Of a stretch of DNA of 52,994 nucleotides, positions 30,184 to 39,182 are shown one piece after another. The notes beneath the pieces are model-generated. The model saw only the letters and a list, made by a program, of their open reading frames with translations. It ran no database searches and was not told where the DNA came from. Both the position numbers and the translations under genes were made by a program. The DNA comes from Escherichia coli (lineage in GTDB: Bacteria > Pseudomonadota > Gammaproteobacteria > Enterobacterales > Enterobacteriaceae), in assembly GCF_003334765.1 (NCBI RefSeq), contig NZ_QOWT01000028.1; one strand, given 5' to 3'. Positions within the stretch are counted from its first letter, which is position 1, and each line of letters opens with the position of its first letter.

Positions 30184-30954
30184 TTAAATGACTTTGCGAA
30201 GATTTTCAGCAAATGCGGCGATCTGTTCTTCGCCGTCGCCTTCAATCACGATGCGCTGACGTTCGCGCTGTTTCGGCGCGGCAACCTGTTGTTCTGACCA
30301 GGCTGCCTCTGCGTTAAAACCAATATCCGCCGCCGACCATACCTGGACGGGCTTTTTCGCCGCGCCGAGAATGGCTTTCATCGAAGGAATTTGTGGGGAA
30401 TTGATATCAGTGGAAACAGCAACAACCGCAGGCAGCGGAATGCTTAAGGTTTCGGTTTCATCTTCCAGTTCGCGCTCAACGGTGAGGGTATCTGCCGTCA
30501 GGGAGATAATTTTGCTGACGCCGTTAACTGCCGGAATATTGAGGATTTCGCCCACCAGCAGACCAACCTGCTGGGCATAAAGGTCGGAAGAACCATCGCC
30601 ACAGAGGATCAAATCAAAGCCTGCTTTCTGGGCGGCTGCAGCCAGTGCGCTCGCCGTTTGTTGCGGCAGTGCCTGCTCGAACTGGTCATCAATCACCACA
30701 ATCAGTTCATCCGGGCCGCGCGATAGCACATCTTTACGCCCTTTGGCGTTGGTCAGGGCTTTACCGCCCACACTTAAGGCCGTCACCTGCGCCTCTGCTG
30801 CCTGTTGCTTTAGCTGGCAAGCCGCTTCAATAGCGTTCAGATCGTATTGGCTTATTTTGGCATCGGCTTTGCTGAAGTCTAATGAACCATCAGCATTATT
30901 GACCGCAATATCCTGTTCATCAGGCACGCACTTATAGCAAGTAATAATCTTCAT
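30184..30954 (-). CDS. fixA: electron transfer flavoprotein beta subunit homolog FixA
   Basis: 256-aa protein [35 protein letters not shown]...; start ATG 30954 (the track ORF is N-extended). Confidence 0.93.
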
Positions 30955-31045
30955 TGCATCTCCAGAAATCATGAAGGAAACGTCATTCATATCGGTGGTG
31001 TTAATTACAGATATCACGCCCTTTAATTTGGAAATAAAACTTTAA

Positions 31046-31176
31046 TCACCAATATTGAAAATGTCACACGCAGATAAATCCAACTTTCAATATTGTTAAG
31101 TTCCTCACCAATATTGAAAACATGGCGTAGAAAAAAGAAATTTTCAATATTGCTTTATGGATCACCAATATTGAAA
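31046..31176. promoter_or_regulatory. array of repeated CAATATTGAAA half-sites in the fixA/caiT divergent control region
   Basis: TCACCAATATTGAAA is present three times in direct orientation (31046-31060, 31105-31119, 31162-31176), with the inverse TTTCAATATTG at 31085-31095 and 31142-31152. Confidence 0.6.
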
Positions 31177-31272: not shown

Positions 31273-31288
31273 TGTGATAACAATCACA
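31273..31288. promoter_or_regulatory. consensus CRP binding site upstream of caiT
   Basis: TGTGATAACAATCACA matches TGTGA-N6-TCACA perfectly, about 155 nt upstream of the caiT ATG. Confidence 0.65.
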
Positions 31289-31424
31289 GAATGCAGCTTA
31301 TTGAATACCCATTATGAGTTAGCCATTAACGCGTCCACGAGGTTAATAATAATTATATCAAATGTTAACAAAAATAAAACAAACGGGAACGCAAAATAAA
31401 TATTCGTTTTCACAGTGGAATTAA

Positions 31425-32942
<1,518 letters not shown>

Positions 32943-38578: not shown

Positions 38579-38582
38579 TCTT

Positions 38583-38757
38583 GCCGGATGCGGCGTAAAC
38601 GCCTTATCCAACTCTGCTGGAGAGCAACCGTAGGCCGGATAAGATGCGCCAGCATCGCATCCGGCGATAGCTGTCGGATGCGGCATAAACGCCTTATCCA
38701 ACCCGGCTGGAGAGCAACCGTAAGCCGGATAAGATGCGCCAGCATCGCATCCGGCGA
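38583..38757. repeat. tandem duplication of an 85-bp REP-pair (BIME) unit, period about 90 bp
   Basis: Copy A 38583-38667 and copy B 38673-38757 are near-identical (gccggatgcggcgtaaacgccttatccaac...gccggataagatgcgccagcatcgcatccggcga) with a few substitutions. Confidence 0.8.
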
Positions 38758-38786: not shown

Positions 38787-39182
38787 TTAACGACGCATAC
38801 TCTTTGACAACATCATCTGCCACTTCTGCTCGCGGTTAAGTTCCGTGAGCGGAACGGCAGGAATACGCGGTGTCTTTCTTACGCCGACTAATTTTTCCCG
38901 ACTGTTATTGCGCAGGCGCGCGTAAATTTGCTCATCGATATCGACCACTTTAACCAGTCGCTGACACTGGCATCCCCGCCCTTCCAGCTTATTAGGGATC
39001 ATCTTAACTTCGCAGCTTATTTCTGTGACTTCCGACAGAATATAAGTCAGGGTATTAACCGCCTTGCTGTGTTCAATATCGAAATGAATAGAGATCTCTC
39101 TTGCTATCACCCACCGATTTTCAGCCATCATCCATTCGGCGATTAACAAGTAGAGTGGTTTTTCAACATATCCTTCACACAT
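38787..39182 (-). CDS. caiF: transcriptional activator of the cai/fix operons
   Basis: 131-aa protein MCEGYVEKPLYLLIAEWMMAENRWVIAREISIHFDIEHSKAVNTL...; start ATG 39182 (the track ORF is N-extended). Confidence 0.9.
   Translation of the reverse strand: MCEGYVEKPLYLLIAEWMMAENRWVIAREISIHFDIEHSKAVNTLTYILSEVTEISCEVKMIPNKLEGRGCQCQRLVKVVDIDEQIYARLRNNSREKLVGVRKTPRIPAVPLTELNREQKWQMMLSKSMRR

Follow-up and report, generated by a model that had tools for sequence, protein, structure and literature searches.

An unpaired copy of the CaiF half-site in the fix core promoter of the Escherichia coli cai-fix control region

Why does a control region with two operators carry five copies of the operator half-site? 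This question is raised by the intergenic region between the divergent genes fixA and caiT in the window, i.e. the whole stretch of 52,994 nucleotides of E. coli DNA that was analysed. The two genes, fixA (30184–30954, minus strand; 256 aa, MKIITCYK...) and caiT (31428–32942, plus strand; 504 aa), are separated by 473 bp between their ATGs at 30954 and 31428. A 601-bp query around the array has matches in 5397 of the 5426 complete E. coli genomes; in strain EC4, which is 100% identical to the query, the matched stretch is annotated as caiT and fixA. The regulator gene caiF (38787–39182, minus strand) codes for a protein of 131 aa that belongs to the Pfam family CaiF_GrlA (PF07180, E = 2e-6) and has GrlA (chain 4kt5_C, E = 1e-3) as its only PDB match. 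The array is thus flanked by fixA and caiT in a genome with caiF, which is the setting of a CaiF operator. Between caiE and the 3′ end of caiF, at 38582–38757, there are also two direct repeats of 86 nt, 94% identical and separated by 90 bp, of REP/BIME-like character (GCCGGATGCGGCGTAAACGCCTTATCC...), which produce spurious repetitive ORFs.

The repeat array and its two CaiF operators

An earlier note, made from the letters of the sequence, had described five half-sites in the fixA/caiT control region, three of them direct and two inverse, alternating at roughly 25–35 bp. A search of the window for the 11-mer CAATATTGAAA yielded exactly five exact copies, at 31050–31060 (plus), 31085–31095 (minus), 31109–31119 (plus), 31142–31152 (minus) and 31166–31176 (plus), which span 31050–31176 with the orientation order + − + − +. 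When up to one mismatch was tolerated, a single extra match appeared at 39074; the chance expectation at this stringency is 1.1, and among 100 dinucleotide-preserving shuffles the maximum was 4, so that none reached the six matches of the real sequence or equalled the count of five. Near matches elsewhere in the window are confined to coding regions (39074 in caiF, 41289 in a 1073-aa ORF), and the search found no copy in the caiF promoter. The three direct copies are part of a longer repeat, (A/C)TCACCAATATTGAAA, that begins at 31045, 31104 and 31161, with the spacings of 59 and 57 bp that had been noted, and the two inverse copies at 31085 and 31142 are both exact minus-strand matches. The alternation is real with respect to orientation, with start-to-start distances of 35, 24, 33 and 24 bp; an even array it is not, because the gaps between the 11-mers measure 24, 13, 22 and 13 bp. 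The array starts with one unpaired copy; the other four form two inverted repeats whose halves are 13 bp apart. A scan of the region against Rfam returned noise only (snR83, E = 0.88), so no known RNA element accounts for the repeats. We also considered strict helical phasing between the units and rejected it, as the units repeat every 57 bp in E. coli and every 59 bp in Proteus. In every copy and genus, the core CAATATTG (31050–31057 as an example from the window) is a perfect 8-bp palindrome, and the orientation of a copy is set by its flanks alone (TCAC and AAA). Each 'half-site' may therefore be a complete minimal site.

According to Buchet et al. (1998, 1999), as quoted in PMC12083890 and PMC3680233, the CaiF operator is a perfect 11-bp inverted repeat, 5′-TTTCAATATTG-N13-CAATATTGAAA-3′, that is found at two sites, F1 and F2. 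Both inverted repeats of the window, the fix-proximal one at 31085–31119 and the cai-proximal one at 31142–31176 (inverted repeat I8), match this sequence exactly, each being F1 or F2. Four of the five copies are therefore already known as published CaiF sites, and the alternation of the array comes down to two inverted repeats plus one single copy. Accordingly, the proposal in the earlier note that the copies are half-sites for CaiF holds for these four, but the fifth is unpaired and no operator; its remark that five copies exceed what the operators need was correct, since the published operators take four and leave one over. As a whole, the array is a known system, made up mostly of the CaiF operators known from textbook accounts of the carnitine regulon. 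For CaiF itself, a response to crotonobetainyl-CoA and activation of the fix promoter have been reported. The fix-proximal operator is centred at 31102, about −70 from the inferred fix start, and the cai-proximal one at 31159, about −127 from the inferred fix start and about −163 from the inferred cai start. The two are related as direct repeats of 51 nt (75% identity) at a distance of 57 bp.

The 13-bp spacers of both operators carry a CRP-like motif, TGyyA-N6-TCAC, which takes its TG from the left core and its C from the right core and which accounts for the TCAC extension of the right halves. The motif in the fix-proximal spacer (TGTTA-AGTTCC-TCACC, 31094–31109, centre 31101.5) agrees with TGTGA-N6-TCACA at 8 of 10 positions, the weaker one in the cai-proximal spacer (TGCTT-TATGGA-TCACC, 31151–31166, centre 31158.5) at 6 of 10. 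Across genera, TTA and TCAC are the sole conserved positions of the N13 spacer. Judged by these matches, the weak putative CRP motifs have the same dyads as the CaiF operators. A perfect CRP site of the cai promoter, TGTGATAACAATCACA, with a conserved GAATACCCATTATGAG block, is situated at 31273–31288 (centre 31280.5), and a conserved cai −10 hexamer, CATTAT, follows at 31310–31315, ahead of the inferred cai start at 31322. For cai, the 1998 abstract of Buchet reportedly gives a CRP site at −41.5, and for fix two sites at −69.5 and −126.5, with 289 bp between the starts. Transferred to the sequence, these positions give a cai start at 31322 and a fix start at 31032, a distance of 290 bp. The placed starts and the CRP motifs are mutually consistent, so the reported CRP figures fit the sequence. 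A different hexamer pair, TTAACG-16-AATAAT, has been given as the cai promoter (PMC3946193). Our consensus scan also yields it, at 31326–31353, i.e. downstream of the CRP box and the CATTAT hexamer. It was rejected as the carnitine-regulated cai promoter since it does not fit the conserved CRP box and −10, and it is treated here as a consensus prediction; it may be a second, constitutive promoter or a mere consensus match.

The fifth copy in the fix core promoter

The left-over copy is an exact, right-type 15-mer, TCACCAATATTGAAA, on the plus strand at 31046–31060. The consensus scan gave one sigma-70-like promoter on the minus strand, GTGACA-17-TAAAGT (31039–31067), with the −35 at 31067–31062 and the −10 at 31044–31039, and the same pair is given for fixABCX by Shimada et al. 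(PMC3946193, Table 1). On this assignment of the hexamers, by scan and literature table, the 15-mer fills the 17-nt spacer of the fix promoter. Relative to the inferred fix start at about 31032, which is derived from the reported CRP positions and the consensus scan, it occupies about −14 to −28. The earlier note had placed all five sites between the divergent promoters; this fails for the fifth, which lies inside the fix core promoter, between −35 and −10.

An inverted partner was sought at the operator distance of 13 bp, where ATTTGGAAATA (31026–31036) agrees at 4 of 11 positions, and at spacings of 8–29 bp, where the best candidate reaches 7 of 11; none is convincing. Nor was a partner for this copy found in other genera. 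The 15-mer at 31046–31060 thus lacks the pairing of a CaiF operator and is a single right-type element. Inspection by eye revealed no canonical extended −10 at this position (a TG is one base out of register) and no fit to the IHF (WATCAA-N4-TTR) or FNR (TTGAT-N4-ATCAA) consensus. Its match to the CRP consensus, TAAAA-CTTTAA-TCACC at 31035–31050, amounts to 6 of 10 positions and comprises the right half only. A conserved block, AAATAAAAC (minus strand GTTTTATTT), is located at 31032–31040, 5–6 nt from the TCAC; it covers the edge of the −10 and the start region in E. coli and aligns with the TATTAT −10 of Edwardsiella and Hafnia.

Secondary sources on Buchet et al. report CaiF footprints at F1 and F2 alone, and the literature within reach, which does not extend to the primary Buchet papers, mentions neither a third CaiF site nor start coordinates. 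We consider the fifth copy probably functional and absent from the descriptions in the reachable literature. A core change from CAATATTG to CAGTACTG, for example, would alter it while keeping the spacer length and both hexamers. Further into the fix 5′UTR, at 30994–31022 (about +10 to +38), E. coli has another strongly conserved block, GTGTTAATTACAGATATCACGCC, and a related pattern, CAATAGAAATACCATGATTCA, hardly varies among Edwardsiella, Hafnia, Serratia and Limnobaculum. This block could be a leader RNA element or the site of another protein.

Conservation and copy number in Enterobacterales

For a comparison across species we fetched CaiT-anchored loci from 80 species, among which there are 55 Enterobacterales loci with a divergent fixA; these are phylogenetically related, with many from Citrobacter and Proteus. 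An unpaired right-type copy is present in 54 of the 55 loci, from about 20 genera. In loci with at least one operator, the start of its core is found at +82 to +99 from the fixA ATG, with the exception of Providencia heimbachae (+129). Nearly all of these species fall between +93 and +99 and C. sedlakii is at +82, the genera concerned being Escherichia, Citrobacter, Salmonella, Proteus, Providencia, Pluralibacter, Yokenella, Atlantibacter and Trabulsiella. From the unpaired copy it is 38 to 40 bp to the next left half and from there 21 bp to the corresponding right half, and the general architecture may be written as R-(24-L-13-R)n. There is no operator (n = 0) in Edwardsiella, Hafnia, Serratia H1w, Limnobaculum and Leminorella, one in Pluralibacter, Yokenella, Trabulsiella, Atlantibacter and others, and two in the Escherichia, Citrobacter and Salmonella clade; Proteus has three, arranged in three 76-nt units with a period of 59 bp that begin with the unpaired copy. 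In Edwardsiella and Hafnia the unpaired copy is the sole one, and Providencia has a right-only copy at the position of the first operator. The number of full operators thus varies (0, 1, 2 or 3), while the unpaired copy stays constant. Absence of the array in close relatives, which the earlier note had put forward as a refutation, thus gives a mixed picture: the full operators vary in number among genera, and the unpaired copy is almost universal.

Several loci depart from this scheme. In Budvicia aquatica (L046), two right-type copies, atCACCAATATTGAAA, stand in direct orientation at +302 and +329 from the fixA ATG, at a distance of 27 bp, and a left-type copy is absent, which is another case of the 15-mer without an inverted partner. 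Entomohabitans teleogrylli (L036), the lone locus of the 55 without the core of the unpaired copy, has kept AAATAAAA and TCAC upstream of fixA and has CAATATTGAA swapped for CCGACGTCGC; one full operator is retained about 100 bp further on, so that this species represents a natural knock-out of the unpaired copy. In Limnobaculum (L042 and L051) and Leminorella (L021), an exact left-type aattTTCAATATTGtgaa at +28/+29 from the fixA ATG adjoins the ribosome-binding region of fixA, about 230 bp from the single right-type copy.

Within the five-copy clade, majority identity is 0.99 for the unpaired 15-mer, 0.96–0.97 for the half-sites of the fix-proximal operator, 0.96–0.99 for those of the cai-proximal one and 0.63 for the linkers. 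High values (0.92–0.93) are also reached by the fix promoter and 5′UTR next to it, so the conservation there is not specific to the motif. Among the 30 species of a deeper comparison, the 14-mer TCACCAATATTGAA hardly varies and the adjacent AAATAAAAC block is kept; the flanks diverge. The profile of the unpaired copy across the loci, TCAC-CAATATTG-AA followed by a free base, equals that of the operator right halves, which argues for the same reader, and is stricter in that TCAC is never TCAA. At the species level, a 36-mer around the unpaired copy is identical in 5315 of 5390 E. coli genomes (98.6%) and a 36-mer of the operator in 3580 of 5382 (66.5%); a control 36-mer just beyond the array is present in only 1657 of 5426.

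The genera that have the unpaired copy only share the minus-strand sequence yTTCAATATTG-GTGAT-CTAGG-TATTAT, in which a good −10 is found ten bases after the core and a −35 hexamer is not recognisable. By its sequence, this layout would be that of a promoter that depends on an activator. A caiF gene beside the cai genes is reported for E. tarda at least. In these genera an FNR-type box, TTGATTAAGATCA, which agrees with TTGAT-N4-ATCAA at 9 of 10 positions, precedes the conserved cai −10 (at about 2226 in locus L045 of Edwardsiella hoshinae, and also in L021, L042 and L047–L050), at the place where the E. coli clade has the CRP box TGTGATAACAATCACA. It is 148 bp away from the core of the unpaired copy in three loci and 134–149 bp in the rest, Budvicia apart. 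Anaerobic control may, to judge from these boxes, act directly on cai in these genera rather than via caiF.

Possible roles of the fifth copy and comparison with known systems

The explanation that we favour, with a probability of roughly 0.57, combines the two known operators and their nested CRP-type motifs with a fifth copy that CaiF genuinely contacts and that forms the ancestral core of the system, to which the operators are accessory. Its observed parts are the anatomy of the array, the match with the published operators, the position within the promoter, and the pattern of conservation and copy number; CaiF occupancy of the fifth copy and an activating role are what we infer. Through F1 and F2, CaiF, reportedly activated by crotonobetainyl-CoA, co-activates the divergent fix and cai operons; CaiF and CRP probably occupy the same 35 bp from different faces. 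With a contact of CaiF in its spacer, the fix core promoter would depend on CaiF. The operators upstream would serve as accessory modules that come and go by tandem duplication of a 57–59 bp unit (0 to 3 per lineage), reinforce the recruitment of CaiF and CRP and bring cai under control as well.

According to the 1998 abstract of Buchet, transcription of cai reportedly needs a critical stretch of 50 bp that overlaps the start of the fix mRNA, an effect attributed to CaiF signalling. A 50-bp window over 31032 can take in the fifth copy and reaches no operator. On the other side stand the footprints, reported in secondary sources at two sites only, which suggest that a single copy may bind CaiF weakly or not at all in vitro. 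A further point against activation from the fifth copy is the length of the fix spacer, 17 bp rather than the suboptimal 18 bp, and its dissimilarity to that of LEE1.

A position of −14 to −28 could equally serve to block RNA polymerase. The fifth copy might then be a negative or limiting site, at which CaiF, or CRP via the TCAC, competes with the polymerase, so that fix expression is capped or delayed when regulator levels are high. The overlap with the polymerase contacts speaks for it, as does the 6/10 match to the CRP consensus, equal to that of the weak site nested in the cai-proximal operator. However, there is essentially no CRP left half, GrlA as the precedent within the family acts from the spacer as an activator, and in the genera that have only the unpaired copy the promoter has neither a −35 nor another CaiF site, so that pure repression would leave the induction by carnitine unexplained. 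We therefore regard a limiting site as improbable, although it is the strongest of the alternatives.

Slightly less credit is due to a role of the whole array as an anti-silencing platform: starting at the fix core promoter, several CaiF molecules would cover about 130 bp of AT-rich DNA and drive H-NS off it, with the copy number tuning the strength. Shimada et al. list an H-NS site in the cai-fix spacer (PMC3946193), a review reports repression of carnitine metabolism by H-NS, copy number is free to vary among lineages (1 to 7), and helical phasing between units is not conserved (57 vs 59 bp). Yet the spacing from the unpaired copy to the first operator is tightly kept at 38 to 40 bp, and the first operator at about −70 occupies a classical activation position.

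The fifth copy could also be a non-functional relic, namely the right end of a duplicated 57–59 bp unit whose left partner decayed on the fix −10 and start. All right-type copies including the unpaired one are indeed in register (59 and 57 bp in E. coli, 59/59/59 in Proteus), the two operators share the 51-nt repeat, and the reported footprints pass the copy over. A relic should decay, however, and this copy is the best conserved of all (54 of 55 loci, 98.6% of E. coli genomes); it persists where operators are absent, and the positions that are free or fixed in it correspond to those in working right halves. On balance, a relic appears unlikely, a little more so than a platform against H-NS. 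Least probable, and scarcely credible, is that the copy owes its conservation to promoter mechanics or another factor, i.e. a spacer sequence needed by RNA polymerase or an unknown protein and not by CaiF: the adjacent AAATAAAAC block and part of the 5′UTR are conserved as well and sigma-70 is known to sense spacer sequence (PMC3130263), but such needs would not make the copy agree with the CaiF right half at 14/14 positions, down to the freedom of the third A, and canonical extended −10, IHF or FNR motifs are not discernible by eye at this copy.

What is new here is modest: an unpaired, promoter-embedded copy with near-universal conservation next to a variable number of operators, undescribed in the literature found. 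The copy for which the published model has no use is the one that is kept everywhere, and it is placed where the virulence activator GrlA is said to act. If CaiF binds it, a common mechanism would emerge for the poorly understood CaiF/GrlA family, the reported need of cai expression for DNA at the fix start would be explained, and key bases would be identified for the carnitine biosensors based on the fix promoter that are now in use (PMC12083890). A bolder generalisation, which we offer tentatively and hold to be doubtful as it stands, is that CaiF throughout the Enterobacterales has the single 15-mer inside the promoter as its primary and ancestral target, that proteins of the CaiF/GrlA family are small activators working as single units inside the core promoter (spacer/−35), and that F1 and F2 are duplicable, CRP-sandwiching accessory modules in 0 to 3 copies.

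Among the known systems, the published F1/F2 sites are the closest, since locus, regulator and sequence are the same as for four of the five copies. The fifth differs in that it is a right half only, with its TCAC and without a partner at 13 bp, and in that it lies within the fix core promoter, whereas F1 and F2 are upstream of it. The cai-fix region has also been listed among CRP-dependent divergent promoters with several CRP sites (PMC3105977). In line with these, there is a perfect CRP site upstream of cai, and two weaker TGyyA-N6-TCAC motifs coincide with the dyads of the CaiF operators; a difference is that the weak motifs are nested in the operator of another regulator and that the fifth copy has just the TCAC half.

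The third comparison is with GrlA at LEE1 P1 of EHEC/EPEC. GrlA belongs to the same Pfam family as CaiF and is its only PDB homologue; activation of LEE1 by GrlA reportedly relies on its binding to the −10/−35 spacer (Islam et al. 2011, cited after PMC10877973 and PMC3130263). The fifth copy holds the equivalent place in the fix promoter, as the 15-mer is contained in GTGACA-17-TAAAGT with the hexamers assigned as above. The LEE1 spacer has the suboptimal length of 18 bp, as in the GrlA/MerR-like case, while that of fix, with 17 bp, falls short of the at least 18 bp expected for GrlA-like activation; the missing −35 of the genera with only the unpaired copy is a different kind of promoter defect from the LEE1 spacer. 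When the LEE1 P1 spacer (checked at 100% identity in O157:H7) was compared with that of fix (TTTAATGATAATGTATTT vs TTTTCAATATTGGTGAT), no sequence similarity was found, so that the analogy is one of position. CaiF, unlike GrlA at LEE1, has paired upstream operators and a CoA-ester effector, and its presence at the spacer would be by analogy. The fifth copy is thus a candidate core-promoter target of the CaiF/GrlA family, GrlA-like in its position between −35 and −10 only.
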